Shown here: piece after piece, positions 1,861 to 64,000 of the stretch
Layout: the number at the start of each line of letters is the position of its first letter
How positions within the stretch are numbered: the first letter of the stretch is position 1
Source of the DNA: Candidatus Campbellbacteria bacterium
GTDB taxonomy: Bacteria > Patescibacteriota > Minisyncoccia > Phycocordibacterales > JAXHMZ01
Reading direction: 5' to 3'
Assembly (NCBI GenBank): GCA_034521025.1
Contig: JAXHMZ010000003.1
Span: 79,726-143,725, forward strand
Length of the DNA stretch: 64,000 bases
Translations under genes and position numbers: made by a program
The notes under the pieces: generated by a model
Seen by the model: the letters and a program-made list of their open reading frames with translations, nothing else
Told to the model about the DNA's origin: nothing
The model's database searches: none

Positions 1861-2834
1861 CTCTTATAGCGGAAGATTACATAGAAAACTAAACCGGTAA
1901 ATGCCATTATAGCAAGGATATACCAAAACCCGTTTGGATCACTTACCAGTGGAGTACTTTCTGTATTCATACCAAATATTCCAGCGACAACTGAGAGGGG
2001 AAAAGTAATGAAAGCCAGAATAGTAAAAGTCTTCATTACTTCGTTCTGCTTTGTTACAAGCAAAGCATCATTGGTTTTTCTAAGTTCGTCGACCAAGCCT
2101 CGGTTAGACTTGGCCTTTTCAACTACTTTATCATATTCAGAATATATAGACTCACTCACATCGCTCGCGTCTTTTTCTAAGAAGCTCGAAAGCGCGACAC
2201 TCAGATCTTCGAGTAAGTTCTTGTGTGTAGCGAGAGTTTGCTCAATAACCAGTAAATTTAGGCTTTCACGAGAAAGTTTTTCTACCGCACTAGCTTCATT
2301 GCCATCAAAAATATGTGCTTCTATCTCAAGCAATTCATCTCTCTGAAATTCGATCTCGTATAAAACAGATCTGTAAAGCTTGCGCACTATTCTATAGAAA
2401 ACACTGGAAACATTTTCTCCCACGTCTTCATTGCTCGTTATTTCTTCTACCTCAAACGTTTTGGCCAGCTTGTGTAATGGATCGATAGTGTCATAATGGT
2501 TCGTTATCAGAAAATCTCCACCGAGAACAAAGTTAACCTCCTGAAGCTTGTCGTCATTATGCGAGTGCTTCAAAGCGGGGAAGTAGAGAGCTACATACAA
2601 CGTTCCGTTAAAGCGCCGCATGTATGGCTTGAAGCTACGAGTACTGAGCTCTTCTCCAAGACGGAAATCCAAATCAAACTCCTCCACTAAAGAATTTATC
2701 TCTTCGTCGCTAGGTATTTCACTATCTACCCAGGTAACACCCTTGTGGCTATATCTATGTAACATTGCCCTAAGTATACAGAGAGACTCGTTTGACCTCA
2801 AGTTGACGCTTTGCGATAATAGTTTGGTATGCAA
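1851..2834 (-). CDS. corA: CorA-family Mg2+/Co2+ transporter
   Basis: 327 aa; C-terminal two-TM region with GMN motif (IFGMNTE); typical CorA length. Confidence 0.85.
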   Translation of the reverse strand: MHTKLLSQSVNLRSNESLCILRAMLHRYSHKGVTWVDSEIPSDEEINSLVEEFDLDFRLGEELSTRSFKPYMRRFNGTLYVALYFPALKHSHNDDKLQEVNFVLGGDFLITNHYDTIDPLHKLAKTFEVEEITSNEDVGENVSSVFYRIVRKLYRSVLYEIEFQRDELLEIEAHIFDGNEASAVEKLSRESLNLLVIEQTLATHKNLLEDLSVALSSFLEKDASDVSESIYSEYDKVVEKAKSNRGLVDELRKTNDALLVTKQNEVMKTFTILAFITFPLSVVAGIFGMNTESTPLVSDPNGFWYILAIMAFTGLVFYVIFRYKRWL

Positions 2835-3110
2835 AATAGCAAATTCAACTTTTGGCCTTCAGCCATAATGATAGCAGTGCTTGTAACTAGCTCTTTTTTT
2901 GTTGGTTTTTTTGTCGGAAATGACCAAACAGACGATATTGAACGCGTAACTGAAGTTGACAACAAGACTTCTTCCGAGACACAAATCGACTTCTCTCCGT
3001 ATTGGAAAGCTTGGAGAATACTGAACGAAAAGCACATAGAAGGTGAAGGGTACAGAAAACGAGAAAAAGCTATGGTCTTCTATAAAGGGCTTAGCCGAAG
3101 CCTACGATGA
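2829..3110 (+). CDS. C-terminal processing protease, N-terminal fragment (signal/TM anchor); out of frame with downstream body
   Basis: 93 aa with N-terminal TM and YWKAWRILNEKHIE (typical Ctp N-region); ends in TGA at 3108-3110 in a different frame from the 3043 ORF. Confidence 0.55.
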   Translation: MQNSKFNFWPSAIMIAVLVTSSFFVGFFVGNDQTDDIERVTEVDNKTSSETQIDFSPYWKAWRILNEKHIEGEGYRKREKAMVFYKGLSRSLR

Positions 3111-4047
3111 TCCATACACTACTTTTTTCCCGCCAAAGGAAGCAAAAGAATTTGAAATGGAGATCAGCGGAAATTTTGAAGGAGTAGGAATGGAAGTGGG
3201 CGTTAAGGATGAAGTATTAACCGTTATAGCACCTCTAAAGGGAACTCCGGCCGAGAAAGCCGGTGTCGAAGCGGGGGATAAAATACTTCAAATAGATGAA
3301 ACACCCACATACAACCTAACGATCGATGAAGCCGTCGATATGATCCGAGGAGAGAAGGGAACCGAGGTCGTACTAACTGTCGCTCGTGAAGGTGAAAGCG
3401 AGACAATTGAGATCCCTATAACACGAGGGGTAATACAAATACCAACCATAGATACAGAACTACGCAATGATGGAGTGTTCGTAATATCACTTTATAATTT
3501 TTCGGGCAATGCTACTTCCGCGTTTGAGGAGGCTCTCAAAGAGTTTGTAGAAACTGATTCTGAAAAACTTATTTTGGACCTGCGCGGCAATCCGGGCGGA
3601 TATCTGCAAGCAGCGGTAGAAATGGCTAGTTACTTCCTAGATAGCGGGGAGGTTGTCGTGCGCGAAACAGGAAGAGGAGGCGAAGAGGTAGAAGTCTATC
3701 GCAGTAAAGGATACGATATTTTTGATCAAGAATTGGATATGGTCGTATTGGTTAACCGTGGCTCTGCATCTGCCTCAGAGATCTTAGCTGGAGCACTTTC
3801 AGAAAACAACGTGGCCACGCTGGTAGGAGAAAAAACTTTCGGCAAAGGATCGGTTCAAGAAGTGGTTGAAATAACACCCGAGACATCGTTAAAGGTTACA
3901 ATCGCAAAGTGGCTAACGCCAAACGGAGTATCCTTCTCAGAGGAAGGTCTTACGCCCGACGTAGAGGTTGAACTGAATTCTGATGAGCTCAACTCAGGAA
4001 ACGACAAACAAATGGAACGCGCTGTTGAATTACTTCTAGAAAATTGA
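3043..4047 (+). CDS. ctp: carboxyl-terminal processing protease (S41 peptidase, PDZ domain)
   Basis: 334 aa; PDZ segment, DLRGNPGGYL and NRGSASASEILAGAL motifs of S41 family; ORF track start is GTG, true N-terminus likely in the 2829 ORF (frameshift). Confidence 0.85.
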   Translation: MKGTENEKKLWSSIKGLAEAYDDPYTTFFPPKEAKEFEMEISGNFEGVGMEVGVKDEVLTVIAPLKGTPAEKAGVEAGDKILQIDETPTYNLTIDEAVDMIRGEKGTEVVLTVAREGESETIEIPITRGVIQIPTIDTELRNDGVFVISLYNFSGNATSAFEEALKEFVETDSEKLILDLRGNPGGYLQAAVEMASYFLDSGEVVVRETGRGGEEVEVYRSKGYDIFDQELDMVVLVNRGSASASEILAGALSENNVATLVGEKTFGKGSVQEVVEITPETSLKVTIAKWLTPNGVSFSEEGLTPDVEVELNSDELNSGNDKQMERAVELLLEN

Positions 4048-4077
4048 TAGTATCGAGACTCATAAGCAAACAGATAT

Positions 4078-4524
4078 ATGAAAGTAATACTATTATCATC
4101 AATACCGAAAGTAGGGAACGTAAATGACATCGTTGACGTTAGTGAGGGGTACGCTATGAACAATCTTATCCCTAAGGGCTTGGCACGTTCTGCCAGTGAT
4201 AAGAATGTTTCGGCGATAGAGAAGCAAATAAAAGAAAATAAAGCCAAAGACGAAGTTCGTAAAAACGAGACCGCCCAAACCATTCGATCTCTCGATAAGG
4301 AGAGCTTCACAGTGAAAGCAAGTGCCAGCGAAAAAGGGACTTTGTTCTCTTCTATTTCCGCAACTGATCTATCTACACAGATCAAGGAGGATAAGGGGAT
4401 TGATATTGACTCATCTTACATTGAACTAGATCAGCCGATAAAAGAAACCGGCGAGCATAAGGTAGAGATAGCTATCGAGGACACGAAAGCTACGATAGTG
4501 GTTAATATAGAACCATCAGAGTAG
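4078..4524 (+). CDS. rplI: 50S ribosomal protein L9
   Basis: 148 aa; MKVILL...NLIPKGLA N-terminal L9 signature. Confidence 0.9.
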   Translation: MKVILLSSIPKVGNVNDIVDVSEGYAMNNLIPKGLARSASDKNVSAIEKQIKENKAKDEVRKNETAQTIRSLDKESFTVKASASEKGTLFSSISATDLSTQIKEDKGIDIDSSYIELDQPIKETGEHKVEIAIEDTKATIVVNIEPSE

Positions 4525-4548
4525 TAAAATATAAAATAATTTGGCAAC

Positions 4549-4582
4549 AAAAAAGCTCTGTGTGACAGAGCTTTTTTGTTTT
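4549..4582. terminator. bidirectional intrinsic terminator between rplI(+) and rpmA(-)
   Basis: perfect hairpin AAAAAAGCTCTGT-GTG-ACAGAGCTTTTTT flanked by A/T tracts on both strands. Confidence 0.7.
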
Positions 4583-4595
4583 TTAATATATTCTA

Positions 4596-4868
4596 TTACA
4601 GAACACTCACCCTCTTTTTGCGAGATGTAGTACCGTTAAAATTACGCTTGCGAACTTCTTCAAAAGAAACCTTTCCGGCTCTACGTGCGTAAATTGTATG
4701 ATCTTTACCCAAAGAGACATTTTGTCCCGGCATTATTTTTGTTCCACGTTGACGCACTATAATAGACCCCTCTTTGGCGCTTTCACCCTCATAGAGTTTG
4801 GTACCTAAATACTGTGGATTTGAGTCAGTGAGGTTTTTTGCCGAACCTCCGGCTTTTCTGTGAGCCAT
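4596..4868 (-). CDS. rpmA: 50S ribosomal protein L27
   Basis: 90 aa; MAHRKAGGS...QRG signature of L27. Confidence 0.95.
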
Positions 4869-4907
4869 AAATAATAATTAGATTTAGGGTATAATTGAAT
4901 TACAGGC

Positions 4908-5336
4908 ATGAGTATACAAAAAAACAGCAATAATAGCAATACTAATGATGAAGAAAACATTGGATCTATTCACACTTCAATAATAGTAATTTTGCTTGTA
5001 CTTTTTGTAAGTTTTTCCGCCTTTGCTTTGGGCAGATTATCTGCTGAAAAAAATAGCAGCAAAGGCCTGGTTGTTGAAACAGTTCCGCCTAATATCTTTA
5101 AAGAAAAGGGAAGTAACAACGGAATAGAAGACGAGAAAGCAAGTCAAGGCGGTTCAGAAGAGGAGGTGGCTGAAGATCGTTTTTTAGTTGGCTCTAAAAA
5201 CTCAGATAAATATCACTTTCCTTGGTGTAGCGGAGCCAAAAGGATCAATGAAGAGAATTTGATCAGTTTCTCTTCATACGAGGAAGCCAAAAACGCTGGT
5301 TACGTAGCGGCACAAAATTGTGATGGGCTTGAATAG
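4908..5336 (+). CDS. membrane-anchored hypothetical protein with C-terminal Ada-like Zn-binding (YHxxxC...N..F.S.EEA..AGY...C) domain
   Basis: 142 aa; N-terminal TM helix, low-complexity linker, C-terminal YHFPWCSGAKRINEENLISFSSYEEAKNAGYVAAQNC resembling the Ada metal-binding domain. Confidence 0.55.
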   Translation: MSIQKNSNNSNTNDEENIGSIHTSIIVILLVLFVSFSAFALGRLSAEKNSSKGLVVETVPPNIFKEKGSNNGIEDEKASQGGSEEEVAEDRFLVGSKNSDKYHFPWCSGAKRINEENLISFSSYEEAKNAGYVAAQNCDGLE

Positions 5337-20638: not shown

Positions 20639-21097
20639 TCAATCGTTCAAGCCGATCTGGAGATCATAGAGCTCGCGGTAAGTGCCGTTCTCTTTTTCAA
20701 TAAGTTCACCGTGCGTACCCTGCTCGACGATCGTGCCGGCCTTGAGTACAAGAATCTGGTCTGAGCGACGCACGGTTGAGAGTCGATGTGCAACGATGAT
20801 CGTGGTACGCCCCTCCATAAGTTCCTCAAGTGTCTCGGTCAGATCATGCTCGGTCTTCGCATCAAGCGCGGATGTGGGCTCGTCAAGGATAAGTATCGCC
20901 GGATCTTGTAGATACGCGCGCGCGATCGCCACACGTTGTTTTTGGCCGACCGAGAGCTTCACCCCTCGCTCGCCGACCAGCGTGTTATATCCGTCAGGAA
21001 ATCGCTGTATAAACTCATCCCCGTGCGCATATTTCGCTGCTTGCTCTACCTCTTCGCGCGTCACGTCCGGAGAGCCATACGCGATATTGTAGTGCAC
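20639..21097 (-). CDS. ABC exporter, C-terminal part of NBD (fragment after frameshift)
   Basis: 152 aa; YNIAYG..., LSGGQKQR signature, Walker B ILILDEPTSALD, H-loop. Confidence 0.8.
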   Translation of the reverse strand: MHYNIAYGSPDVTREEVEQAAKYAHGDEFIQRFPDGYNTLVGERGVKLSVGQKQRVAIARAYLQDPAILILDEPTSALDAKTEHDLTETLEELMEGRTTIIVAHRLSTVRRSDQILVLKAGTIVEQGTHGELIEKENGTYRELYDLQIGLND

Positions 21098-22311
21098 TGT
21101 ACTGAGTTAAAGAGTGCGATCTCTTGTGATACCACTCCGATCTGGCGACGCACGTTTTCAAGATCGATAGATCTCGTGTCTATTCCGTCAATAGCAACAG
21201 AGCCGGAGGTTGGGAAATAGAATCCCGCCACCAGATCAATGATCGTACTCTTCCCCTCACCGGAGCGCCCCACAAGTGCCGTTCTCGTGCCAGCCGGTAT
21301 AGTAAACGAAACATCAGTCAGTACTTCATTCTCTGTGTCATACGCAAATGAAGCATGGTCGAATACGATCTCGCCTCGCAAGGTCGGCGTCCCCGCTCCC
21401 TCCGGATGATAGATCTCTTGTGGCTCTTCAAAGATCTTTTCAGCCTCCAGAAGATTTGTCACATAATTCTGAAGCCATTGCCACATATCGTTGAATTCTA
21501 TGAATGGGCCATAGAGGAGGCCTGCATACGCATTAAAAGCAACAAGTTCACCAACGGAAATGACTCCCTGCGTTACAAAAATAATACCTAGAACGTAGAT
21601 CGCTATTTGCGTAATCAACACCAGCACTCGCTGAAAGAAGCTCATTCGCTCCCAGATACCGCGTATATGAAGAAATGTTCCCAATAGAGGTCCAGTAAAA
21701 TTATGTGCGATGGTATTCCCTTCCCGGTTTTCGTATGCGGCAATTTTTACCTCTCGCACTTGTGATATGACATTATAAACAGTACCGTGAGCTTCACGCT
21801 GATATTGGTGATATGAGCGCTCCAGTGGGGCGAGCGGAGCAAGCGTCGATCGGGCAACGACCACGTACATTGCTACGGAAACCACAAGTATCAGAGCAAG
21901 CCATACATTAATAAAGAATGCGAACGAAAATGCCGCCACGAGAGTCAGAAGTTTCGGCGCGATCTGAAGAATGTCCTGCGTCACGCTTTGCATCGTAAAC
22001 GCACCCATATTCATATTCTCCATCACTGAACCGAACCGCTGCTCTTTGTGAAATGACAGCGGAAGACGCAACAAATGATTATACCCCCGCACGCGAAAAC
22101 TGATCGACATACGCTCAGCGAGCGAGAGCGACCTGATCGAGAGCGCCCAGTCAACCGCGTACGTGACGAGCTGTATGACACACCACAGCGCAAGGATCAC
22201 AAATACGAACATCACTTCACGGCGAAAGTCCGACGGTAGATCGGCGATCGTCGTCGATGATGCGACCGGTGGTGATTGAATAAGCGCGTCCCAAGCGCGA
22301 AGTACGCCCAA
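21061..22311 (-). CDS. ABC exporter, TMD plus Walker A part (fragment before frameshift), MsbA/multidrug-exporter type
   Basis: 416 aa; 6-TM exporter domain then GRSGEGKST Walker A; TTG start; overlaps downstream fragment in another frame. Confidence 0.8.
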   Translation of the reverse strand: MGVLRAWDALIQSPPVASSTTIADLPSDFRREVMFVFVILALWCVIQLVTYAVDWALSIRSLSLAERMSISFRVRGYNHLLRLPLSFHKEQRFGSVMENMNMGAFTMQSVTQDILQIAPKLLTLVAAFSFAFFINVWLALILVVSVAMYVVVARSTLAPLAPLERSYHQYQREAHGTVYNVISQVREVKIAAYENREGNTIAHNFTGPLLGTFLHIRGIWERMSFFQRVLVLITQIAIYVLGIIFVTQGVISVGELVAFNAYAGLLYGPFIEFNDMWQWLQNYVTNLLEAEKIFEEPQEIYHPEGAGTPTLRGEIVFDHASFAYDTENEVLTDVSFTIPAGTRTALVGRSGEGKSTIIDLVAGFYFPTSGSVAIDGIDTRSIDLENVRRQIGVVSQEIALFNSVQCTTISRMALRT

Positions 22312-22435: not shown

Positions 22436-23149
22436 TTACTCAGTCACCCCTATCGCACGACGTACTTCCGTCATTTTCTGTTCTGCCTGCTCGCTCGCCT
22501 TTTTCGCCCCAAGAGTGAGAACGTCGCTCACGTATGCTCGGTCTTTCAGGAGTTCGTTATATCGTTCACGAAGAGGTGCAAAATATTCTAATAATTTCAG
22601 AGCTAGCATCTTTTTTGAATCTCCATAACCGATTGAACCCTCGCGGTACTTACTCTCCAGATCTTCGATCTCTTCTTTTGACGATACAAGTTTATGAAGA
22701 TAATAAACGGTATCGGAATCAGGATCTAAGGGCTCACCAAGTGGCGTCGAGTCGGTCTGAATCGACATCACCGCGTCGCGAAGCTCATCGTCAGAACCAA
22801 AAAGCGGTATAACATTGTCATAGCTCTTGCTCATTTTGCGTCCGTCAATACCCGGGATCGTCTCAACGTCAGAGAGTATATGCGGCTCTGGGAGTTTAAA
22901 CGTCTCGCCATATGCGCGGTTGAACGCGTCCGCAGTGTCCCTCGCGATCTCGAGATGCTGTTTTTGGTCTTTGCCGACCGGAACTATATCAGCATCGTAA
23001 ATCAGAATATCGGCTGCCATTAACATAGGATAGTTAAACGTCCCTGCGTTTATTTCCTCCCCTTTTTCTTGCGCGTCTTTGTATGCGTGTGCCCGTTTAA
23101 GGTAAGAGATAGATGTAAGGCATTCAAATATCCAAGCGAGCTCTGTCAC
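22436..23149 (-). CDS. trpS: tryptophanyl-tRNA synthetase, C-terminal 237 aa (fragment)
   Basis: ELAWIF..., GKDQKQHLE, KMSKS; class I TrpRS. Confidence 0.85.
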   Translation of the reverse strand: MTELAWIFECLTSISYLKRAHAYKDAQEKGEEINAGTFNYPMLMAADILIYDADIVPVGKDQKQHLEIARDTADAFNRAYGETFKLPEPHILSDVETIPGIDGRKMSKSYDNVIPLFGSDDELRDAVMSIQTDSTPLGEPLDPDSDTVYYLHKLVSSKEEIEDLESKYREGSIGYGDSKKMLALKLLEYFAPLRERYNELLKDRAYVSDVLTLGAKKASEQAEQKMTEVRRAIGVTE

Positions 23150-23168
23150 CTCAGGAACGTCAGATTGT

Positions 23169-23411
23169 TTAAAAAGGGTTACTCTGTCCTTGGATCGAGT
23201 CCAACTGCAAGATACGCCGCCGCCACGTCAAAAGAGCTCTCCTTGCGAGCTTATCGGAACCACGAACGGTGGTTAGTGCGTGAAGGTCGGCAATAAAGAC
23301 AAGTGCATCATACTTGTCCTGCAGTTCTACAAACTGACGCATAGCACCAAAGTAATTACCTATGTGCAAACGCCCGGTCGACTTTATTCCTGAAAGAAGT
23401 GTTTTGCTCAT
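23169..23411 (-). CDS. trpS: tryptophanyl-tRNA synthetase, N-terminal 80 aa (fragment)
   Basis: MSKTLLSGIKSTGRLHIGNYFGAMRQFVELQ (HIGN motif); reading frame lost after ...HALTTVRGSDKLAR. Confidence 0.8.
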   Translation of the reverse strand: MSKTLLSGIKSTGRLHIGNYFGAMRQFVELQDKYDALVFIADLHALTTVRGSDKLARRALLTWRRRILQLDSIQGQSNPF

Positions 23412-42978: not shown

Positions 42979-44169
42979 TCAAACGGCCAACTTTTCAATC
43001 ATTAGCTCGAGTTCTCCTAGTATCTCTTCGTACTTCCCCATCGGTTCTTTTTTATAATTCACAAACTCATCGACAACTTCACCATTGCCATCCAAAAGAA
43101 ACACCGGTTTTGTGCCAACTTTTCCCTCTAGACTTACCGACATAATTTCTTCTGGAAGAATATGAGTACCTTTAGCGAAAGTAATTGCCCTGTCTTCCTT
43201 TTCGATCCTCCAATCCGATACGTCCAATTCATACGGACTTTCGTTTCTTACTTCCACCCACTCTTCGGTAGCATCGTTTAAAGCTAAGCTATTAGTTTCT
43301 ACAACTTCTATTTTTACTCTATCGCGGTAAGTATTGTTATCATGCTCTACCAAAAGGATGACGCTGTAAAAACCGGGCCTGTCATACGAATGCCTAACTA
43401 CATCGCCTCTGTCACCTTTTCCGTCACCAAAAGCCCAAATTAGATCTCGGCCCCCGACCTTCTCACCTCCTTCGAATTTGGCTCTGCCGATAAAACGAAC
43501 ATCCTCGCCCACAAAAGCCCTTTTATTTTCTCCGGCGCTCAAATAAAGATCTTCGTCCTCAAATGGCCATTCACTTTCTAGGTTACTGAACGAGTCCTCG
43601 CTATCTGAATCTTTTGTATCTTCCGACGCGCCTTCTTCCTCATTTGGCGGCTCAAAAACAGTGGTTGTATTTTCTTCACCGGGAGTTGGCAGTCCTTCTA
43701 TCCAGTCCGCATTCTCTTGTTTTTGCAAGGAAGCTCCATTTCCACCGGCTCCCCACTCAGAGTCATACTGAACACTATCAATAATATTTCCGGAGGCATC
43801 TTTGAAGGCAATTAACTCCCCGGTGTTATTTAATGAAAAGACGCTGTCGAAAACAGCGCCTTCATATTGGGGGAAATCCTGGAGGAATTTATCAGGGTCA
43901 TCTGCTAATACCGCGTGAGAATTCGCGCTCAGATCAGTGCTGCCTAAAAAGTTCTCAATTCTGTGATTGGTGTCGTTCTCAAAGAAACCGAGCTCAGTTA
44001 TATTTACCGATTGAGCACTCCCGTTATATATTTCTACCCACTCAAAACCACTGTCTGTTCCTTTTCTGTCGTAAAAAATTTCCGTTATTTCAATTTGCGC
44101 GAAAGCAAAGCTTGGAAGCGCGTAGCTACTCAATAAAATAGCGATAAATATAAGTTGTTTTTTATTCAT
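42979..44169 (-). CDS. secreted lamin-tail-domain (LTD) protein
   Basis: 396 aa; signal peptide; IEITEIFYDRKGTDSGFEWVEIYNGS LTD signature, second LTD-like segment (EEWVEVRNES) near C-terminus. Confidence 0.7.
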   Translation of the reverse strand: MNKKQLIFIAILLSSYALPSFAFAQIEITEIFYDRKGTDSGFEWVEIYNGSAQSVNITELGFFENDTNHRIENFLGSTDLSANSHAVLADDPDKFLQDFPQYEGAVFDSVFSLNNTGELIAFKDASGNIIDSVQYDSEWGAGGNGASLQKQENADWIEGLPTPGEENTTTVFEPPNEEEGASEDTKDSDSEDSFSNLESEWPFEDEDLYLSAGENKRAFVGEDVRFIGRAKFEGGEKVGGRDLIWAFGDGKGDRGDVVRHSYDRPGFYSVILLVEHDNNTYRDRVKIEVVETNSLALNDATEEWVEVRNESPYELDVSDWRIEKEDRAITFAKGTHILPEEIMSVSLEGKVGTKPVFLLDGNGEVVDEFVNYKKEPMGKYEEILGELELMIEKLAV

Positions 44170-45922
44170 TGTTGTAGTCCTCGTCTACGCGTAGGATCTT
44201 TTTTAATTTATTCTTTGGGATTTCATTTGTTTTTTCTAAAGATTCAGAATTGTTATTAGTAAAGCTATCTCTATTATCTCGCAATGGTTTCTGTTCTGAT
44301 TTTTTCTCTTTGTCTTTAGTCTCTTTTGGTGGTCTGATCTTTTCTTTATTACCAACTTGATCGCTTTTCATCTTCTCATCGATCGCCGGAGAAGCTGGTT
44401 CGGGAGCGCCGGTCAGATTCTTTAAAGCTTCGCGTAAGCTGTTTCGGTGATTCTCATCGCCGACCTTTGGCTTGTCATTGTTTTTTGTCTCTTTAGGTGT
44501 TTCTTCTCGGGGCGCTTTCTCTTTTTGTGTTGTCTCTTTTTTGTAATTCGGCTTTTTGTCTTGCCTAGGGGCTTTTCCCTTGTCGATTCTCTCAGAATGA
44601 GAAGATTCTGTTTTTTCTTGACTCTTCTTAATTGTGGATTCAACGTCAGATCTCGGTGTTCCAAAGTTTTTGCGACTATGCGCTATAGCGACGTCACGAT
44701 ATGAAATACGAGGCTCCTCTATGGGTGGCATCGTAGTAGCAGAAAAAGGAGTTGAAGAAATACCATCTACCATCAACTTAAGATAGACCTGAGCAAAGCC
44801 AAGGTTGACCATATCCTCAGCGGTAAACTGCGGAGCAAACTCCTTTTCTAGAATTTCCGCGTCGTAAGCTCCAACCCTGAACGAGATCATAGTCCCAACG
44901 TTACCAAAAACGGCCGCGCGCACCTCCTCAGACATCTGTTCAATATACTGGTGAGCTATAGTTAAATTGAGTTTGTATTTGCGGGCCTCGGAAAGAATGT
45001 TAGCGAAACTTTCATTGGCAAAGGATTGAAATTCATCTACGTAAAGATAAAAATTGGGCAACGTACTCATTATCTCGGGTGAGCTGTCGGCACGCGACAT
45101 AGCAGCAAGGTATATTTTTGTTATCAGCATCGACCCTAACAGGTTGGCGTTTTGCTCTCCGACCAACCCCTTTGAAAGGTTGATAATTATGATCTTTCGT
45201 TTGTCCATTATGTCACGAATATCAAACGACGATTTTGGCTGTCCGATGATATTGCGTATCAGTGGATTGGAGGTAAATTGTCCTACCTTGTTTTGAATAG
45301 CAGGAGTAGCTTCTTGCGCGTAGCGATCCGTGTAACTGGCAAATTCTTCTTCCCAGAATGATTTAACAAGCGGATCCTGAACGTAATCAACTACCTTTTT
45401 GCGGAAATCTTTATCGGTATACATTCTATTAATATCGAGCATTGTCGTTCCGGGATACTCAAGAAGCGCCAAGATCGTATTTCCGAGTATGTATTCCATC
45501 CGAGAGCTCCACGCGTCAATCCAGATCTTTTTGAATGCGCTCATTAATCCGTCTAATACCAAGTGGCGTTTATCTTCACCTACATCCTCCATCACATTAA
45601 ATGAGATGGGATGATCCACGTCGAAAGGAGCGAAGTAAAGAACGTCATCTACCCGTTCCTCAGGTATATACTCTAATAATTTCTCCGCTGTTGAACCGTG
45701 AGGATCCAGAAAGGCAATCCCATTACCTCTTTGGATATCCTGGATAGCCATGTTTTCAAGCAGGGTGGATTTACCCATTCCAGTCTTACCGATCACGTAA
45801 ACATGTCGCGTGCGATCTTTTGCCTTAATACCGAACTCTACATCTTTATTCCGGTGATCCGTTCGGGCAAAGTAGGTTACTCTTTCGTTATCCATAATTA
45901 AAGATATTGTAACAGAAAACAA
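44162..45922 (-). CDS. TraG/TraD/VirD4-family (type IV coupling-protein-like) ATPase with K/E-rich C-terminal tail
   Basis: 586 aa; Walker A VIGKTGMGKST, Walker B YLYVDEFQSF, C-terminal RKYKLNLTIAHQ (TraG-D_C-like); no N-terminal TM. Confidence 0.6.
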   Translation of the reverse strand: MFSVTISLIMDNERVTYFARTDHRNKDVEFGIKAKDRTRHVYVIGKTGMGKSTLLENMAIQDIQRGNGIAFLDPHGSTAEKLLEYIPEERVDDVLYFAPFDVDHPISFNVMEDVGEDKRHLVLDGLMSAFKKIWIDAWSSRMEYILGNTILALLEYPGTTMLDINRMYTDKDFRKKVVDYVQDPLVKSFWEEEFASYTDRYAQEATPAIQNKVGQFTSNPLIRNIIGQPKSSFDIRDIMDKRKIIIINLSKGLVGEQNANLLGSMLITKIYLAAMSRADSSPEIMSTLPNFYLYVDEFQSFANESFANILSEARKYKLNLTIAHQYIEQMSEEVRAAVFGNVGTMISFRVGAYDAEILEKEFAPQFTAEDMVNLGFAQVYLKLMVDGISSTPFSATTMPPIEEPRISYRDVAIAHSRKNFGTPRSDVESTIKKSQEKTESSHSERIDKGKAPRQDKKPNYKKETTQKEKAPREETPKETKNNDKPKVGDENHRNSLREALKNLTGAPEPASPAIDEKMKSDQVGNKEKIRPPKETKDKEKKSEQKPLRDNRDSFTNNNSESLEKTNEIPKNKLKKILRVDEDYNNE

Positions 45923-53151: not shown

Positions 53152-54132
53152 CTATTTAATGTATTCCTGATTGATCTTTACCGAAAGATAGCTCAACCCC
53201 AAGAACGCAAAGCCCAAAACAACGAGAGACAAAGGCCAGCCCAAAGAGTTCGCAAAGTATTGCTCTGTTATATAAGCCAGATGCAACAAGAGAAAAATAG
53301 TACTAAAGATCAAAACAATACGACTCTTAATCACGGCTGATAGAAATAGCCCGCCCACAACTAGTGGGAAATACAGCAACTGCCACAAAAAGTAATCATA
53401 TGCCTGCAAGAAGGCAGCTCCCAAGAACATCAAACTGCCAAAGAATAAAAGTAGACCAGTTAAGCGCCTGTTCCAAGTGGCTTGAAATTTTTGCGACAAA
53501 ACCAAATACCCTATCCCGACAGCCATAGACAGATATTGATACGCCCACCTTATCTCATACTCGCTCTCAAAGATATTATCAACTGTAGCGTGGAGCCACA
53601 GATATAAAGTTGAAGTACCATTCAAAATAGCAAAAAAGGTTAATACCGCACTCTTGTGCGCCAGACTTAATAGTCCGTAAGAGATCCCAAGAACAGCAAA
53701 AGCGATAACTCGCAACCATATACTTTCAAGACCTAATTCAGCAAAAGTCGTAAAGATACCGATCGGTATCAAAACGCCTCCAAGAAAATGAAAGGCCGCG
53801 CCAACGTCTTCCCCACGCTCTCTTTTCAAGAGAACTGAACCTAGAGTCCCTAGTAGAAAGCCTAATCCCAAAGTAATCACAACTCTAGCAACGGAACCAA
53901 TATCTTCCCAAATTTGAACCACAAATAAAGCAAGACCTGTTATAACGATCGCCGCTCCTAAAATAGAAGCGATCCTTGTTAGGGAAAACCCTCCATCACT
54001 TCTCCCTTCGGACATCTCTGAGTCCTCCTCTACTTCCGCGCTCTTTGCCATAAGACTCTCTAGTTCGCTACGACTCACCTCACCCGAGTGCAATTTTTCG
54101 GAAAGTTCGTTGAGTAGATCTTCCTTGTACAT
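53152..54132 (-). CDS. polytopic membrane protein with N-terminal soluble helical segment (DUF2157-like)
   Basis: 326 aa; about 50 aa cytoplasmic head then about 8 TM. Confidence 0.55.
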   Translation of the reverse strand: MYKEDLLNELSEKLHSGEVSRSELESLMAKSAEVEEDSEMSEGRSDGGFSLTRIASILGAAIVITGLALFVVQIWEDIGSVARVVITLGLGFLLGTLGSVLLKRERGEDVGAAFHFLGGVLIPIGIFTTFAELGLESIWLRVIAFAVLGISYGLLSLAHKSAVLTFFAILNGTSTLYLWLHATVDNIFESEYEIRWAYQYLSMAVGIGYLVLSQKFQATWNRRLTGLLLFFGSLMFLGAAFLQAYDYFLWQLLYFPLVVGGLFLSAVIKSRIVLIFSTIFLLLHLAYITEQYFANSLGWPLSLVVLGFAFLGLSYLSVKINQEYIK

Positions 54133-54155
54133 ATATTTAAAATTCTTAGTTTATA

Positions 54156-54722
54156 CTATTCAGCTAAAATCCAACCCATAAATCGAAATCCGTCACCATA
54201 ATATCCTCTGTAGTTGGCATTAACATTGATGAGGTTTTGTTTTTGCCTCCTCCCTCCTTTCGTCAAATAGTAACCGCTGGAAGAGTTCGAATCATAAAAC
54301 AAAAAGAACGAAACGCCACCGTCATATTCAGGTCCAGAAAAAGAAACACCATCGGGAGCAGTTAATAGACTACTCAGCTCATACGAGCGTGCTTCTTCAA
54401 AGGCGATCTCTCTGCTTTCGTTAGTGCTTGTGTTGTGCATGAAAAAGCGAACCTGAAAGCCTTCTTCATCTTGCGGTTCATCAAGTTCGTTGTCGCTAAT
54501 TCTCTTGTTAACTATTGAAAAGCGTTCATCTAAATATTCATCACAGCTTAAAGTTCCCGGTTCGTGGCGTGTGTTATTTTCACAGGTTGCATATACAAAA
54601 TTATAGTCACTACTCAAAGAAAAATATGGTAAATATGTAGTCAAAAAGATCACCAACACAAGAAGTAAGGGCAACAACAAAGCCAGAACAATAACTGTGT
54701 TTCCTTTAAAAAATTCTTTCAT
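54156..54722 (-). CDS. membrane-anchored/secreted hypothetical protein
   Basis: 188 aa; N-terminal TM/signal; no recognisable motifs. Confidence 0.5.
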   Translation of the reverse strand: MKEFFKGNTVIVLALLLPLLLVLVIFLTTYLPYFSLSSDYNFVYATCENNTRHEPGTLSCDEYLDERFSIVNKRISDNELDEPQDEEGFQVRFFMHNTSTNESREIAFEEARSYELSSLLTAPDGVSFSGPEYDGGVSFFLFYDSNSSSGYYLTKGGRRQKQNLINVNANYRGYYGDGFRFMGWILAE

Positions 54723-54795
54723 ATTAAATATTTACAAGTGTACACAAATAATACTTAGTTTGTGCACATTTGTAAACGCGCAAAACTAGAGCACA

Positions 54796-55190
54796 GGAGG
54801 AATCTCCGCTCTATCTAATAGGCTTCTTTTCAATGTGCGCGAGTCCTCGGCTCAAAGCTTCCGGGCTCGTCATTATCAGGTAAACGCGCCCTTAGAAGCA
54901 TTTACCGCTCTATTTGAATTTGAGTTTTTTAAAGGGTGCGCGATCCAAGACTCGAACTTGGGACCTCGTCATTATCAGGTGATCGCGACCTTAGGAGCAA
55001 TCACCGCTCTATCCAATAGGCTTCTTTTCAATGTGCGCGATCCAAGACTCGAACTTGGGACCTCGTCATTATCAGTGACGCGCTCTAACCATCTGAGCTA
55101 ATCGCGCACATTGAAAAGAAACAATACATCTGAGCTAATCGCGCACTCTTTAAAAAACTTTCCTGCGACTGAGTAAATCGCGCGCAAAAA
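54796..55190. repeat. array of tRNA-Ile-derived partial copies and about 48-nt direct repeats
   Basis: 3-prime half of tRNA-Ile (anticodon loop to acceptor end) repeated at 54937-54978 and in degenerate form at 54866-54896; aggag(g/c)aatc(t/a)ccgctctatc(t/c)aataggcttcttttcaatgtgcgcga at 54796-54843 and 54992-55039; tRNA 5-prime fragments ctgagctaatcgcgcac at 55092-55108 and 55131-55147. Confidence 0.8.
55034..55107 (-). tRNA. tRNA-Ile (anticodon GAU), CCA not encoded
   Basis: manual fold: acceptor GCGCGAT/ATCGCGC, D arm GCTC-AGATGGTTA-GAGC, anticodon arm CGTCA-CTGATAA-TGACG, T arm CCAAG-TTCGAGT-CTTGG, discriminator A. Confidence 0.85.
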
Positions 55191-55303
55191 ATGAAAAGCA
55201 TTTAATAAATTGCACCGAATACAAGTAAAAATATATCAGTTTTCAGCCCTAAAAACAAGAAAGCCCCGAAGCTAATTAAAGCTTGGGGCTCTTTGAAAAG
55301 GAA

Positions 55304-55722: not shown

Positions 55723-55917
55723 TACTTAGTACTCATAACCTATAAAGCCGCCCCTTGCGAGGCGGCTTGTTATTTTCTGCACAATTTCTTTTGCTTCATT
55801 CATCTCGGTGTCGCTGTTTCCGAGAATAGCGGAAAGATTTTGGATTGTTCTTTCAAACACACGCGCGATAAACGCACGTATCGACTCGATAAATCTGAAA
55901 ATTCAGATAAATCAAAA

Positions 55918-57405
<1,488 letters not shown>

Positions 57406-60458: not shown

Positions 60459-60992
60459 TTAGACTCGCTGTGCTTTTCTGAAGAAACGGCGTAAAGGAAT
60501 GTCTTTGTAACTACCAAGAGCTGAGATCATAGAGACCAGAACACCAATACCGAACACAAGAGCAAACCCCTGTACGATCGAGCTTCCAAAGTAGAAGAGC
60601 ACAACCGCCGAGATCAAAGAAGACAAATTAGCGTCTCGAACTGCCGGCCATGCTCTGTCAAAGCCATCCTGAATCGCACCTAAGCTCCCCTTTCCACTCT
60701 GAAGCTCTTCTTTGATGCGTTCAAAAATGATCACGTTGGCATCCACCGCCATACCCACGGAAAGTATGAAAGCGGCAATTCCGGAAGCGGTTAAAGTTAC
60801 AGGAATGAGTTTGAAAAGCGAAAGCATGACCAATGTATAGAACACAAGAGCAACCGCCGCTACTATCCCGGGTAACCTATACCACACGATCATAAATCCG
60901 AGTATCAGAGCAAACCCTATAATACCCGCGGAAACTCCGTCATCCAGAACCTGTTGGCCGAGAATTGGCCCCACGGAATTAGTAGAAACCAA
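60459..60992 (-). CDS. secD: SecD, C-terminal TM domain (fragment 3 of 3)
   Basis: 177 aa; SecD/F TM bundle; TTG start of ORF track; in frame +1 relative to middle fragment. Confidence 0.8.
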   Translation of the reverse strand: MVSTNSVGPILGQQVLDDGVSAGIIGFALILGFMIVWYRLPGIVAAVALVFYTLVMLSLFKLIPVTLTASGIAAFILSVGMAVDANVIIFERIKEELQSGKGSLGAIQDGFDRAWPAVRDANLSSLISAVVLFYFGSSIVQGFALVFGIGVLVSMISALGSYKDIPLRRFFRKAQRV

Positions 60993-61026
60993 CTCAATCG
61001 GAACCGGAAGCGCTCCAAAACTCAGA

Positions 61027-61551
61027 TCACGCGCGCAACTTTCTCGCTTCTTCGGGAGTAAACTGCCCGGAGATCACCGCCTCGCCGGTTGGTATCTCCT
61101 CTCTTATGACAGGAGTTGAGATAACTTCTCCATCAAGAAATATTGCCAAAACCTCCCCGACGTTATCACGAGTGATCTCAGCGAAAAGATCCCTTCCTTC
61201 ACTATTAAACCTAATGTTAACTATAGGCTCACCGGTTGTCTGGTCGAACTGAACAGAAGCACTTTTGACGTAGCGTCCTGTGAGTTCGGTCTTCTCGTAA
61301 AGATCCTCGGGTGATAATTCAAGCTCGGCTGTGGTTCCGTTTTGGCTTCCTTCAGAGCTCTCGCCTTCAGTTGTCTCTCCCTCGGAGTTACCTTCATTTA
61401 TATTAAGGCCTTCCAGTTGAGACTGATCAATTTCAAGTTCGCTTTCGTCTTTTCTCAACCGAAATTCCAAAACCGGAGTTTCGCCTATCATAGCGATAGC
61501 TTCATTGATATCCGTCACTCCGGGCAAGTTCAACAATGAGCCTGTTCTCAC
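61027..61551 (-). CDS. secD: SecD, periplasmic domain (fragment 2 of 3)
   Basis: 174 aa; LPGVTDINEA..., LAIFLDGEVISTPVI...ISGQFTPEEARKLRA typical SecD P1 head/base. Confidence 0.8.
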   Translation of the reverse strand: MRTGSLLNLPGVTDINEAIAMIGETPVLEFRLRKDESELEIDQSQLEGLNINEGNSEGETTEGESSEGSQNGTTAELELSPEDLYEKTELTGRYVKSASVQFDQTTGEPIVNIRFNSEGRDLFAEITRDNVGEVLAIFLDGEVISTPVIREEIPTGEAVISGQFTPEEARKLRA

Positions 61552-61864
61552 CTCCGGCTAATCCTCCCTTCTCCACTTGTACACGTGGCTCGGAAACACC
61601 AAAAAGATTGACACGACGCTCAATAACGTCGCGCAGTGCCGACATAGAGGCCTCTACTTCTTCCGGAGCTACCTCGGATGTATCCGCGTTATATATAAGT
61701 TGCGTTCCGCCGGATAGATCAAGTCCGTATTTGAAAGCAAATCCCGAAAAGCGAGAATCTTCTTTTTCAGAAAGCACAACAAAGGCCCCCAGGAGTATTC
61801 CGATCAGTACTATCACTACAGATACAATTCTCGCGTTTCTCATCATAGCGGCTACATTATACAT
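61502..61864 (-). CDS. secD: SecD, N-terminal TM1 and start of periplasmic domain (fragment 1 of 3)
   Basis: 120 aa; TM helix then GLDLSGGTQLIY and GGENRLIVEL. Confidence 0.8.
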   Translation of the reverse strand: MYNVAAMMRNARIVSVVIVLIGILLGAFVVLSEKEDSRFSGFAFKYGLDLSGGTQLIYNADTSEVAPEEVEASMSALRDVIERRVNLFGVSEPRVQVEKGGLAGGENRLIVELARSDGYQ

Positions 61865-62432: not shown

Positions 62433-62722
62433 TGCCCTTTATTATTCTCTTCAATAGACTTGGCAACATTTTCAAAAAGCTTGATTACCGTTATCGGACC
62501 GACTCCTCCCGGCACAGGTGTAACCAAAGAAGCTTTTTCATAGACCTGCCTATCTACATCCCCTGACACTTCACCGGCAGACTCACTGGTCCCGGCATCT
62601 ATCAATACAACTCCCTCTTTGACCATATCCTTATCAATGAGACCAGCCTTGCCGACTCCGGTAACGATCAGATCAAACTCTCTGAGGCGATTCAGGTCCG
62701 AGTCGACTGTCAAACATCTCAA
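62429..62722 (-). CDS. folD: FolD, C-terminal part (fragment)
   Basis: 97 aa; LIVTGVGKAGLI, TPVPGGVGPITV. Confidence 0.8.
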   Translation of the reverse strand: MRCLTVDSDLNRLREFDLIVTGVGKAGLIDKDMVKEGVVLIDAGTSESAGEVSGDVDRQVYEKASLVTPVPGGVGPITVIKLFENVAKSIEENNKGQ

Positions 62723-63255
62723 ATGCTGCGCCTTTGTTCTCCAGCAAAAGAGAAGACTGGCTTCCCTACCAAATTTCCATAACCAACAATGGCTATTTTT
62801 TTATCTAGAAGGTCTATATTATTGCGCGACAAGATCTCTTCCACCGCTGCTGCTACCGGTGGCACGAACACATTTTCATTTTTCCGGTAAAGCTCGAGCG
62901 CGTTCGGAGAAAGACAGTCAATATCTTTTTCCTTTGGCACAATATCCAAAAATGTTTCCCGATTAAAGTACGAAGGCAGAGGCAGCTGCACCACTACCCC
63001 GTCAGATCTTCCGACTACGAGAGACTGTAGGATCTTTTCAGCAACTGATTCTATAGTGTTTTCGGGTAATTCATGAATATGAAGATCAACTCCAATTCTC
63101 TTTGCCACTCGTCTTTTGATGTTCAAAAAAGACCTGGTGGAAGGATCCTCACCAAAACTAAGAAAATCAATGTGCGGTTCTTTGTCGTACGCGGCGAAAG
63201 TTTTCTTTAGTTTACTCTCTATATCTCGCGCGATTTTTCTACCATCTACTATCAT
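62719..63255 (-). CDS. folD: FolD (methylenetetrahydrofolate dehydrogenase/cyclohydrolase), N-terminal and NAD(P) part (fragment)
   Basis: 178 aa; MIVDGRKIA..., IAIVGYGNLVGKPV. Confidence 0.85.
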   Translation of the reverse strand: MIVDGRKIARDIESKLKKTFAAYDKEPHIDFLSFGEDPSTRSFLNIKRRVAKRIGVDLHIHELPENTIESVAEKILQSLVVGRSDGVVVQLPLPSYFNRETFLDIVPKEKDIDCLSPNALELYRKNENVFVPPVAAAVEEILSRNNIDLLDKKIAIVGYGNLVGKPVFSFAGEQRRSI

Positions 63256-63335: not shown

Positions 63336-64000
63336 TCAGCCGAATTCCGGAAGGCTCTGCGGACTTCTTTCATCAAAAGGTATAGTGTTTTTGTTCGTAA
63401 CGATTCCTTCCACCTCCAATTTCTCCGCTGCCTCATCACCCGAAACTCCTTTTCCTTCCTGCCAAGTATCAACGAGCAAGAGGTGCGTGTCTGTGCCTCC
63501 TGAAACCAAACGCAATCCTCTTTCGCTTAGCGTGTCCGCGAGTGCCTTTGCGTTTTTAGCCACGTCTTCGGCGTAAGTCTTGAATTCAGGCTTTAGTGCT
63601 TCAGTAAAGGCTACTGCCATAGCCGCTATCTTATTCATATGAGGCCCGCCTTGGATCCCGGGGAAAACCGCTTTGTCTATTTTCGCGGCATATTCCGGAG
63701 AAGAAAATATTATCGCGCCACGCGGACCGCGAAGAGTTTTGTGGGTGGTGGTCATCACGGTATCGGCAACCGAAAAAGGCGATTGATGAACACCACCTAC
63801 GACCAATCCGGCAATATGTGAAATGTCCGCGTGCAGATAAGCCCCGACAGAATCGGCTATCTCTCGCAACTTCCTAAAATCTACCTCGCGCGGATAAGCG
63901 GTAAAACCGGCAACTATCATCTTGGGTTTCGTCTCTACAGCGATCTTTTTTAGCTCGTCATAATCGATCATCTCTGTATCTCGCGATACTCCGAATTTCT
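63336..64000 (-). CDS. glyA: serine hydroxymethyltransferase, C-terminal about two-thirds (5-prime end beyond window)
   Basis: TTTHKTLRGPRG (PLP lysine region); frame stays open upstream to window edge (…KFGVSRDTEMIDYDEL…). Confidence 0.9.
   Translation of the reverse strand, partial: KFGVSRDTEMIDYDELKKIAVETKPKMIVAGFTAYPREVDFRKLREIADSVGAYLHADISHIAGLVVGGVHQSPFSVADTVMTTTHKTLRGPRGAIIFSSPEYAAKIDKAVFPGIQGGPHMNKIAAMAVAFTEALKPEFKTYAEDVAKNAKALADTLSERGLRLVSGGTDTHLLLVDTWQEGKGVSGDEAAEKLEVEGIVTNKNTIPFDERSPQSLPEFG

Follow-up and report, generated by a model that had tools for sequence, protein, structure and literature searches.

A tRNA-Ile gene enclosed in displaced halves of its own older copies, next to the 16S rRNA gene of a Campbellbacteria genome

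Integrases that act at the anticodon loop of a tRNA gene displace the block from this loop to the 3′ end of the tRNA, and displaced tRNA-gene fragments accompanying tyrosine integrases at islands and prophages were reportedly described by Williams in 2002. Split, permuted and multi-intron tRNA genes occur in archaea, namely, in Nanoarchaeum, Caldivirga and Thermoproteales. Stems formed by the leader and trailer of rRNA operons are substrates of RNase III, and template switching or fold-back at quasi-palindromes is an established mutational mechanism. In tRNA-dependent lysogeny, a phage interrupts the single-copy tRNA gene of its host and provides a replacement; the examples known are intact prophages of actinobacteriophages, which have an integrase, a common core of ~10 bp and arm sites (Guerrero-Bustamante & Hatfull 2024, PMC10865867). 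Here, we describe an array of partial copies around the tRNA-Ile(GAU) gene in a stretch of 64,000 nucleotides (hereafter, the window) of a metagenome-assembled genome (MAG) of Candidatus Campbellbacteria bacterium (GenBank assembly GCA_034521025.1, contig JAXHMZ010000003.1). The array is one live tRNA-Ile in two concentric shells composed of the front and back halves of older copies of the same gene. With a probability that we put at roughly 45%, it arose by serial internal re-duplication or replacement of the tRNA-Ile gene, the displaced halves being left behind as shells.

The only tRNA of the window is tRNA-Ile(gat), called on the minus strand by ARAGORN at 55033-55107 and by Rfam at 55034-55107 (71 bits), in agreement with an earlier note made from the DNA sequence alone. 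Denoting 5′ pieces as F, 3′ pieces as P, upstream and downstream spacers as X and Y, and hairpins as H, the order on the minus strand is promoter region, F3, X3, F2, X2, tRNA, Y2, TAGAGCG-H2, P2, Y3, TAGAGCG-H3, P3, Y4 and a terminal hairpin with TTTT (Table 1). The F pieces correspond to tRNA positions 1-18; the P pieces begin in the anticodon loop and continue as far as the 3′ end. Upstream of each P piece there is the D-arm 3′ sequence TAGAGCG and then a 9-bp hairpin that stands in place of the 5′ strand of the anticodon stem (positions 27-31). Shell 2 is made of F2 (positions 1-18) and TAGAGCG-H2-P2 (positions 33-75), and shell 3 of F3 and TAGAGCG-H3-P3. Decay increases outward, the pieces of shell 2 being exact and those of shell 3 only 61-65% identical. 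P3 keeps the anticodon-loop block (CTGATAATGACGAG at 54866-54879) and the acceptor 3′ strand (~54835-54842), with a degenerated T-arm. The 3′ arm of H2, read directly, resembles tRNA positions 22-32, GAGCGCGTCAC, and H3 differs from H2 by two compensatory changes (GGTGATTGC/GCGATCACC vs GGTAAATGC/GCGTTTACC). The gaps between copies are only 19-57 nt, and successive 3′ copies are separated by 55-57 nt of trailer and hairpin. With a slash marking the breakpoint, the D-loop and anticodon-loop junctions that an attP site would have to match read GGT/..., .../CTGATAA and ...ATTT/ATAATGACG.

Table 1. Features of the array and the two adjoining genes (window coordinates, good to ~1 nt for the array; L-numbers denote loci of relatives)
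Feature	Position	Strand	Basis
Candidate extended −10 promoter TGATATATT for the array transcript	55230-55238	minus	predicted
Second candidate −10, TTATTAAAT	~55199-55207	minus	aligns with TGGTATATT of L124
F3, outer decayed 5′ piece GCGCGCGATTTACTCAGTCG, ~tRNA positions 1-18, 4 changes	55166-55185	minus	repeat family D2, 65%
X3, spacer pairing with Y3	55145-55165	minus	inverted repeat I1 and fold
F2, exact copy of tRNA positions 1-18, ends in D-loop	55127-55144	minus	repeat finder, BLAST, shuffles
X2, leader of live tRNA, pairs with Y2, extends acceptor stem by 13 bp	55108-55126	minus	I2; 15 consecutive pairs counted outward from the stem
Intact tRNA-Ile(GAU), CCA not encoded	55034-55107	minus	ARAGORN, Rfam
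Y2, trailer of live tRNA, complementary to X2, ~94% identical to Y4	55012-55033	minus	I2, D3
TAGAGCG (D-arm 3′ piece) and hairpin H2 GGTGATTGC / loop TCCTAAGGTC / GCGATCACC	54978-55011	minus	sequence reading, fold
P2, exact copy of tRNA positions 33-75	54936-54978	minus	repeat finder, BLAST
Y3, spacer pairing with X3; its L129 ortholog is the 3′ flank of the intact tRNA	54913-54935	minus	I1 and alignment
TAGAGCG and hairpin H3 GGTAAATGC / TTCTAAGGGC / GCGTTTACC	54879-54912	minus	repeat D4
P3, outer decayed 3′ piece	54835-54879	minus	repeat D1, 61%
Y4, outermost trailer, ~94% identical to Y2; pairs with sequence upstream of F3, also with X2	54814-54834	minus	D3, I3, fold
Terminal hairpin TAGAGCGGAG..CTCC..GCTCTA then TTTT, likely terminator of the array transcript	54782-54813	minus	sequence reading, fold; predicted
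Two lineage-specific genes outside the array: 188 aa without family; 326-aa DUF2157 membrane protein	53152-54722	minus	Pfam, synteny

The array is real and far beyond chance. In the shuffle control, 0.05 occurrences of the 14-mer CTGATAATGACGAG and 0.03 matches to the 18-mer of the tRNA 5′ end were expected, compared to three and two observed, respectively, and Tandem Repeats Finder reported a period of 99 with 2.9 copies at 54795-55082. The repeats listed in the earlier note were recovered, some with different limits. The exact copy of the tRNA 3′ half comprises 43 nt (54936-54978, positions 33-75) rather than 42 nt at 54937-54978, and the degenerate second copy, previously placed at 54866-54896, extends over ~54835-54879. 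The 48-nt direct repeat is present (54795-54842 and 54993-55040), but its copies are 94% identical and not exact. Fragments of the tRNA 5′ end were likewise found, one of them exact over 18 nt (55127-55144) and the other degenerate (55166-55185), and the statement that no partial copy is a tRNA holds, as none was called by ARAGORN, nor by Rfam down to E = 10. What that note missed is the nesting, namely, the pairing of spacers, the hairpin before each 3′ copy and the concentric fold.

The nesting is written into three inverted repeats detected by the repeat finder: I2 (20 nt, 100%), I1 (22 nt, 95%) and I3 (19 nt, 100%). In I2, the acceptor stem of the live tRNA continues into the X2-Y2 pairing, giving a perfect 20-nt inverted repeat. 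I1 (54923-54944 with 55138-55159) pairs X3 and the acceptor strand of F2 with the acceptor strand of P2 and Y3. For the 431-nt strand, the predicted fold is a set of concentric helices; its minimum free energy is −163.9 kcal/mol, compared to −125 ± 5.7 for shuffled sequences (z = −6.8). When the insert is removed, shell 2 has a predicted acceptor stem, D-arm, long hairpin and T-arm, which is cloverleaf-like but not a valid tRNA; ARAGORN reported spliced shell 2 only as a forced 'Ala(cgc) + 11-nt intron' and spliced shell 3 not at all. Rfam searches, both at the gathering threshold and at E ≤ 10, matched only the tRNA and 16S rRNA, the matches to Plastid-ycf2 being antisense tRNA. The whole array is probably one transcript, which would start at the extended −10 promoter and end at the terminal hairpin with its T-run. 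In relatives, sequence reading and alignment place a TG(G/C)TATATT motif 10-40 nt upstream of the outermost element. A consensus promoter scan did not call the candidate array promoter because there is no −35 box, and the terminal hairpin at 54782-54813 was not called by a strict terminator scan.

How does this arrangement compare with the systems described above? Similarly to the tRNA fragments of islands and prophages (Williams 2002; Islander, PMC4383910), the array combines an intact tRNA with direct 3′ copies starting in the anticodon loop or T-loop, and tandem accretion of fragments is known there as well. However, no integrase was found with the window array, its gaps are 19-57 nt and there is no island DNA; it has 5′ fragments, nesting, complementary spacers and a hairpin at positions 27-31; and the nested architecture has been inherited and re-created across many lineages. 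tRNA-dependent lysogeny is the only known system with the same logic. In both, a resident tRNA gene stays broken, and the gap between its halves holds a full tRNA of the same isotype (F2 / X2-tRNA-Y2 / TAGAGCG-H2-P2 in the window; a split at 35-37 in locus L124 of a relative). In contrast to the phage system, the unit between the halves measures 110-190 nt, there is no common core, no phage genes were found and the flanks look local. The archaeal split tRNAs share with the array interruptions at D-, anticodon-, variable- and T-loop positions and complementary sequences that join the halves, but here the organism is a bacterium and the 'intron' holds a whole functional tRNA. Moreover, the interrupted copy cannot mature into a tRNA because the 5′ strand of the anticodon stem is missing. 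In the predicted fold, helices run uninterrupted across the junctions, where the 3-nt bulges of a bulge-helix-bulge motif are missing, and no member of the splicing endonuclease family was found among the scanned open reading frames (ORFs) of the window, i.e. in 64 kb of the genome. As with rRNA-operon processing stems, a stable RNA in a 16S-linked region is enclosed by a flank helix of at least 20 bp; such stems are not normally found around tRNAs, and here nearly all of them go with the nested architecture, their cleavage being a prediction. Finally, template-switch rearrangements resemble the array in their near-perfect palindromic junction hairpins, in snap-back ends (L088, ACGAGGttttCCTCGT; L096/L104-type locus, TGACGAGgtCTCGTCA) and in inverted copies of the tRNA 3′ end in downstream modules of relatives. 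They explain the junctions, but neither the ordered repeated nesting nor the conserved position of the hairpin.

The order of events can be approached through the nearest relatives, which are not close: among 5.8 billion sequences, the closest MurD proteins are 57-62% identical. Their contigs keep the gene order of the window, with YggT directly after the array in L119, L120, L124 and L125 (YggT was detected by tblastn only in L119-L122, and by a weak Pfam match in L124; in L125, gene size and position point to it). The contig of L129 begins inside an identical tRNA, and the 3′ flank, hairpin and 3′ piece that follow are orthologous to Y3-H3-P3 of the window, H3 corresponding to the hairpin GGGTAAAC..GTTTACCC. 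Thus, the intact tRNA of L129 occupies the position orthologous to P2, L129 has the outer unit without the innermost one, and the window has an extra unit of 97-99 nt (positions 32-75 with Y2, TAGAGCG and H2). The array-terminal unit of L129 resembles Y2-H2 and Y4 of the window. On the 5′ side, F3-X3-F2 aligns with the outer 5′ pieces of L124, F3 being orthologous to GCGATTAATCTGTACGG. The inner breakpoint of L124 is in the anticodon loop, its 5′ piece covering 1-37 and its 3′ piece starting at 35, and its spacers are unrelated to those of the window; the same ancestral gene was therefore split independently in the two lineages. L119 and L120 contain decayed 3′ pieces homologous to P3, and the array region of L125-L128, from four samples, is identical and has no 3′ piece. 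Orthology with L129, L124, L119 and L120 therefore indicates that the outer layers are old and shared and that the innermost layer is lineage-specific. The earlier note had held that an unchanged array with unchanged neighbors in related genomes would speak against integration; the result is mixed, with outer layers and flanking genes common to relatives and the innermost unit and two genes polymorphic. The contigs of L120, L122 and L129 begin inside the tRNA at positions 17-22, which is the D-loop breakpoint of the 5′ pieces, suggesting that short-read assembly may break at these repeats.

To follow the architecture over larger distances, we used a MurD-anchored scan of species-representative genomes, which provided 80 Patescibacteria loci (best identity, 51%). 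In 51 of them tRNA-Ile(GAU) is located upstream of murD and, where the contig reaches that far, downstream of 16S; the distance between the tRNA and murD ranges continuously from 5 nt to 8 kb, and representative gap ORFs are housekeeping genes or have no family match. Partial self-copies flank tRNA-Ile on both sides in many loci. In this unbiased set, a partial copy of at least 14 nt was found in 7/12 loci with the tRNA type of the window and in 9/39 loci of the other type, and three other loci have exact 5′ and 3′ pieces at once. L077, L062 and L056 share the layout of the window, i.e. a 5′ piece ending in the D-loop, leader, tRNA, complementary trailer, TAGAGCG with hairpin, and a piece that begins in the anticodon loop and reaches the 3′ end. 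L078 is plain, although its tRNA and outer flank are the same as in the nested L077. A metagenome scan with the pattern TAGAGCKG, a 16-34-nt gap and CTRATAATGACGAGG added 38 further loci, including a three-layer nest (L082) and a two-plus-two nest (L084), whereas viral contigs gave 0 matches to the hairpin-plus-anticodon-block pattern, the single pattern used. The number of layers and the breakpoints (D-loop, anticodon loop, T-loop) vary among relatives. Breakpoints of tRNA-Ile pieces cluster at positions 10-13, 17-21, 32-37 and 55-63, 3′ pieces starting at 32-37 and 55-63. In the same loci, 9/57 other tRNAs (Phe, Pro, Lys, Gln, Thr and Leu) have flanking partial copies, which likewise break at the anticodon loop or T-loop, often with inserted palindromes.

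Not all shells match the tRNA that they enclose. In L092, the acceptor stem of the shell is unlike that of the live tRNA and its two strands are complementary (GCGGGTG/CATCCGC); in L086 and L107, only the 3′ strand of a differing acceptor stem is seen (TACTCGC); and the 3′ strand of the L048 piece mismatches its tRNA. In addition, some loci have cargo between the tRNA and a distal 3′ piece, amounting to 3.1 kb in L006 and to one ORF each in L029, L030 and L070. The L006 segment (1991-5263) encodes an EamA transporter, a glutamine amidotransferase (GATase), a TPR protein and unknown proteins, and no integrase. The L006 junction CTCACTTCCATTT/ATAATGACGAGG resembles the L124 junction CTCACTTGTATTT/ATAATGACGAGG, the common part being CTCACTTnnATTT/ATAATGACGAGG.

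The hairpins and the leader-trailer helices show different patterns of base pairing. All 42 distinct hairpins across loci begin with GG and end with CC, and their 405 pairs comprise 393 Watson-Crick, 6 G-U, 3 A-C and 3 other combinations, numbers for which the ratio of G-U to A-C (6 vs 3) is uninformative. Many of these hairpins consist of an A-tract, stem and T-tract, like bidirectional terminators elsewhere in the window; H2 and H3 of the window have no U-tract. A fold-back origin of the hairpin from positions 22-32 is convincing by eye for the two window hairpins but is weakened by most relatives, in which only the last 4-5 nt (TCAC-like) match. TAGAGCG with the hairpin is not the native trailer of plain loci either, as the plain type-A loci L006, L021 and L079 do not have it. 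In the leader-trailer helices of relatives we counted 179 Watson-Crick, 17 G-U, 4 A-C and 23 other pairs, and the excess of G-U over A-C is consistent with selection acting on the sense transcript. Eight or more uninterrupted pairs beyond the acceptor stem are present in 19/80 tRNA-Ile loci, nearly all of which have shells or 3′ pieces, and in 0/58 other tRNAs. Leader-trailer pairing is therefore not a general trait of precursor tRNAs (pre-tRNAs) of these organisms but is tied to the nested architecture. Together with the 20-nt flank helix of the window, paired at 100%, these runs are of the kind expected of an RNase III-type stem.

The earlier note had interpreted the duplicated 3′ halves as attachment (att) site scars left by a tyrosine integrase. 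Part of this reading stands, since an intact tRNA is accompanied by direct-orientation 3′ fragments (P2, 43 nt, exact; P3, degenerate) and P2 starts at a sublocation used by integrases and runs to the 3′ end. The absence of an integrase, the tiny gaps and the nested 5′ pieces do not agree with it. We scanned with Pfam the window ORFs of at least 120 amino acids (aa; ~60 ORFs, all but FolD at 62719-63255 and GlyA at 63336-63971) and with PHROGs eight ORFs around the array and a TrwB/DUF87 ATPase. No integrase, transposase, reverse transcriptase or phage gene was found among them, only housekeeping or unknown proteins, and the suggested search for an integrase came out negative for these ORFs of the window. 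A regular expression for tyrosine-recombinase box II, a weak test, had no match in the six frames of the window, and the representative gap ORFs of relatives did not include an integrase. No further distal copy of the tRNA 3′ half, or any other array sequence, occurs elsewhere in the 64 kb, and no foreign DNA, only 55-57 nt, separates the tRNA from the displaced 3′ fragment. X2/Y2 and X3/Y3 constitute terminal inverted repeats, as in a miniature inverted-repeat transposable element (MITE) or insertion sequence (IS), though they are continuous with the acceptor stem; there are no further copies in the 64 kb and no transposase, and TA at both junctions is ambiguous since the D-loop reads T-TA-G. 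Simple tandem duplication on each side fits the periods (99 nt; 37-39 nt) but neither the order of spacers (Y2 resembles Y4, with Y3 between) nor the layer-specific matching of X and Y, and adenine mutagenesis of the kind caused by diversity-generating retroelements is rejected because the differences, as read, are not adenine-specific.

The array was also suspected to adjoin accessory genes at 51.7-54.7 kb. Two genes at 53152-54722, between the array and the syntenic YggT, are indeed absent from relatives: they have no homolog in any fetched relative and no flanking repeat, no distal array fragment bounds them, and their GC content is like that of the rest of the window. For the 188-aa ORF, no exact protein match is on record. 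YggT and a ~190-aa ORF of the same interval are, however, syntenic, so that the interval 51.7-54.8 kb as one island can be rejected. A promoter-like site of the gene after the array lies at 54748-54776.

We favor serial gene-in-gene replacement. Each new layer would be a self-contained unit of short leader, tRNA, trailer and hairpin, inserted into the existing gene at a point between its D-loop and its anticodon loop; the old gene would be inactivated and its function taken over by the new copy. The newest unit appears to be of local origin, given that Y2-H2, its trailer and hairpin, are paralogous to the terminal Y4-H4 and to the terminal unit of L129. The most likely molecular route may be aberrant break repair or template switching at the boundaries of cloverleaf loops. 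We infer this route, the least secure part of our argument, from the junction palindromes, namely, the window hairpins and the snap-back ends of L088 and of the L096/L104-type locus. Alternatively, the vehicle could be a mobile element that, like the phages of tRNA-dependent lysogeny, interrupts the tRNA of its host and carries a replacement; the resulting topology would be the same. The X2-Y2 and X3-Y3 helices may have been retained because they clamp the true ends of the live tRNA together despite the decoy halves and give an RNase III-type enzyme access to the precursor ahead of RNase P and RNase Z. The shells themselves would be debris that is tolerated and that gene conversion keeps close to the live gene in sequence. 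Several points weigh against this reading. The mechanism of insertion is a conjecture, no intermediate or vehicle having been seen. The invariance of the hairpin (positions 27-31, GG...CC, 393/405 Watson-Crick pairs) is unexpected for debris and hints at a mechanistic or functional role, and the fact that decayed outer pieces are recognizable at ~60% MurD identity suggests constraint on the shells. Gene conversion, and not origin, could account for the likeness of Y2 and Y4. Foreign acceptor stems in the shells of L092, L086, L107 and L048 point to imported alleles over purely local duplication, and the cargo intervals of L006, L029, L030 and L070 fit a model with an integrative element. Co-transcription and processing of the array are proposed from sequence and predicted fold.

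The main rival would be a decayed element of the tRNA-dependent-lysogeny kind. According to this explanation, which we regard as unlikely, the array consists of scars of serial tyrosine-integrase integration by tRNA-targeting elements. Classical elements would account for displaced 3′ halves, and elements of the lysogeny type would split the host tRNA for good and bring their own tRNA-Ile; genome streamlining would then have deleted all but the element-borne tRNA unit, by now essential. It has a known precedent (PMC10865867) and accounts for the extent of P2 from the anticodon loop to the 3′ end, for breakpoints clustered in the anticodon loop and T-loop, for the cargo and the foreign acceptor stems just mentioned, for the junction common to L006 and L124 and for the two lineage-specific genes that adjoin the array. 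Integration, however, would have to be reconciled with the missing integrase, with the 0 matches in viral contigs and with pieces only 19-57 nt apart. The nest does not include the two extra genes, which no repeat bounds, and the newest unit has flanks that match the outer ones of the locus itself. Moreover, F2 and the 3′ part have no common core, positions 19-31 being lost or replaced, unlike the products of conservative recombinases, and an attL/attR duplication does not predict 5′ fragments or nested complementary spacers. The array may be described as a variant of the duplication or scar arrays associated with tRNA genes, for which the att-scar reading is only partly supported.

If the hairpin and the persistence of shells are given more weight, the array could be viewed as a functional composite RNA, in which the live tRNA sits in the D-loop of a tRNA-like shell scaffold. 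The shell would be a processing platform, a two-piece tRNA-like RNA that remains once RNase P and RNase Z have excised the inner tRNA, or a decoy against integrases or anticodon nucleases. This is rather improbable in our estimation. The very stable nested fold (z = −6.8), the folding of spliced shell 2 into acceptor, D, long hairpin and T arms, the conserved position, extensive covariation and conserved loop classes of the hairpin, the bias of helix mismatches to G-U, the persistence of the architecture and of decayed outer pieces over deep divergence, and the compensatory acceptor changes in the L092 shell all agree with a function. On the other hand, the outer shells are decaying, with the T-arm gone from P3 and four changes in F3, and layers, breakpoints and the very presence of shells vary, as seen from plain L078 vs nested L077 and from L125-L128, which have no 3′ piece. 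Many hairpins are terminator-like and would end transcription before the 3′ piece, hairpin stems are nearly devoid of G-U pairs (6/405), unlike typical selected RNA helices, and there are no Rfam family matches. According to a broader version of this idea, which we consider doubtful, Patescibacteria would maintain in such arrays their own, bacterial equivalent of split or intron-bearing tRNA genes. The 16S-linked tRNA-Ile would be nested deliberately in the D-loop or anticodon loop of a tRNA-like scaffold, with layers added by dedicated tRNA-in-tRNA homing, and the halves, clamp helices and hairpin would be functional as a processing or quality-control platform or as decoy attB sites or substrates against tRNA-splitting integrases or anticodon nucleases. 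An artefact, in which repeats were mis-joined in an assembly or a chimeric contig, has to be considered because the source is a MAG and because the related contigs L120, L122 and L129 break inside the tRNA at the D-loop, so that the repeats do disturb assembly. It is nevertheless very unlikely, because dozens of assemblies made independently, in different projects and with different assemblers, show the nested layout with lineage-specific sequences; the arrays of L125-L128, which come from four samples, are identical, and the copies differ by ordered decay and compensatory changes rather than by random joins.

Other features of the window and of related loci are as follows. The 16S rRNA gene is located at 55916-57404 on the minus strand (Rfam), and no 23S rRNA gene was found after it in the window. 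The interval between 16S and the array contains terminator-like hairpins (55745-55768 and ~55262-55295), a strong promoter-like site (TTGACA-16-TATAGT with TG, 55722-55695), a 79-aa ORF, and a 42-aa putative membrane peptide with a GGAGG ribosome-binding site. A TrwB/DUF87-type ATPase (44162-45922; phrog_5156, E = 8e−58) is found beside LTD-MurB-SecA in every Campbellbacteria-like relative and, given this synteny, is probably a core gene of Patescibacteria and not a marker of mobile elements. Three housekeeping genes appear split, namely, an ABC transporter in two, TrpS in two and SecD in three (20639-22311; 22436-23411; 60459-61864), which could be due to frameshifts, pseudogenes or MAG consensus errors. 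In L008, a match to group II intron D1-D4 (837-919, 35.8 bits) lies between 16S and the nested tRNA-Ile.

Loci with the other tRNA-Ile type contain a downstream pseudo-tRNA-Ile (L029, 3890-4130; L030, 1690-1810; L070, 2900-3180; L042 and L048) with a conserved D-loop insert of ~80 nt, including an AGCCC-UUCG-GGCU hairpin, and a variable-region insert of ~70 nt. Compared with the live tRNA, the anticodon stem of the L029 copy differs by two compensatory changes. Between tRNA and pseudo-tRNA, L029, L030 and L070 encode an ORF of 166-185 aa, which in L070 contains an RnlA-toxin DBD. Another type of module recurs downstream of tRNAs (L002, 1992-2110; L003, 2294-2560; L062, 1770-1970; L008, 3120-3270; L108/L111), including Lys, Thr and Gln tRNAs in L043, L064 and L074. 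It consists of an inverted copy of the T-loop, T-stem and acceptor 3′ strand, a conserved structured insert, and a direct copy from the T-loop to the 3′ end. Examples of the insert are GCCCGATTGAG..AATCGGGGTACTGA-stem-TGTAA-stem, GGGAAGGGGTCGGGAAACGGGAGTTTCCC.. and GAGTCGGGGTCGAGA..CTCGTGAC, and its small hairpin covaries (AACC/GGTT, AAAC/GTTT, ACCG/CGGT). In eight loci scanned, including L003, L008 and L062, these modules matched no Rfam family at the gathering threshold; they may represent an undescribed structured RNA or an insertion module. In addition, a GC-rich palindrome, CCCGCCCG...CGGGCGGG, is present within pseudo-tRNA pieces of different genomes and tRNA identities (L019, in a tRNA-Phe 3′ piece; L076, L087 and L108) and looks like a small mobile palindromic element.

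In the literature searched, which covered nested, pseudo- and intron-bearing tRNAs in Patescibacteria and att scars, we found no description of a tRNA nested in a pseudo-tRNA with clamp helices. In practical terms, such repeats would break metagenome assemblies at the tRNA D-loop beside 16S and thereby contribute to the missing rRNA and tRNA loci in Patescibacteria MAGs. The array may also serve as a test bed for asking whether tRNA-splitting elements act in Patescibacteria, how a pre-tRNA folds correctly beside perfect decoy halves, and whether the shells have a function. If serial replacement is the true explanation, the locus would be a readable fossil record of an essential single-copy tRNA gene that has been replaced from inside repeatedly in ultra-small genomes.

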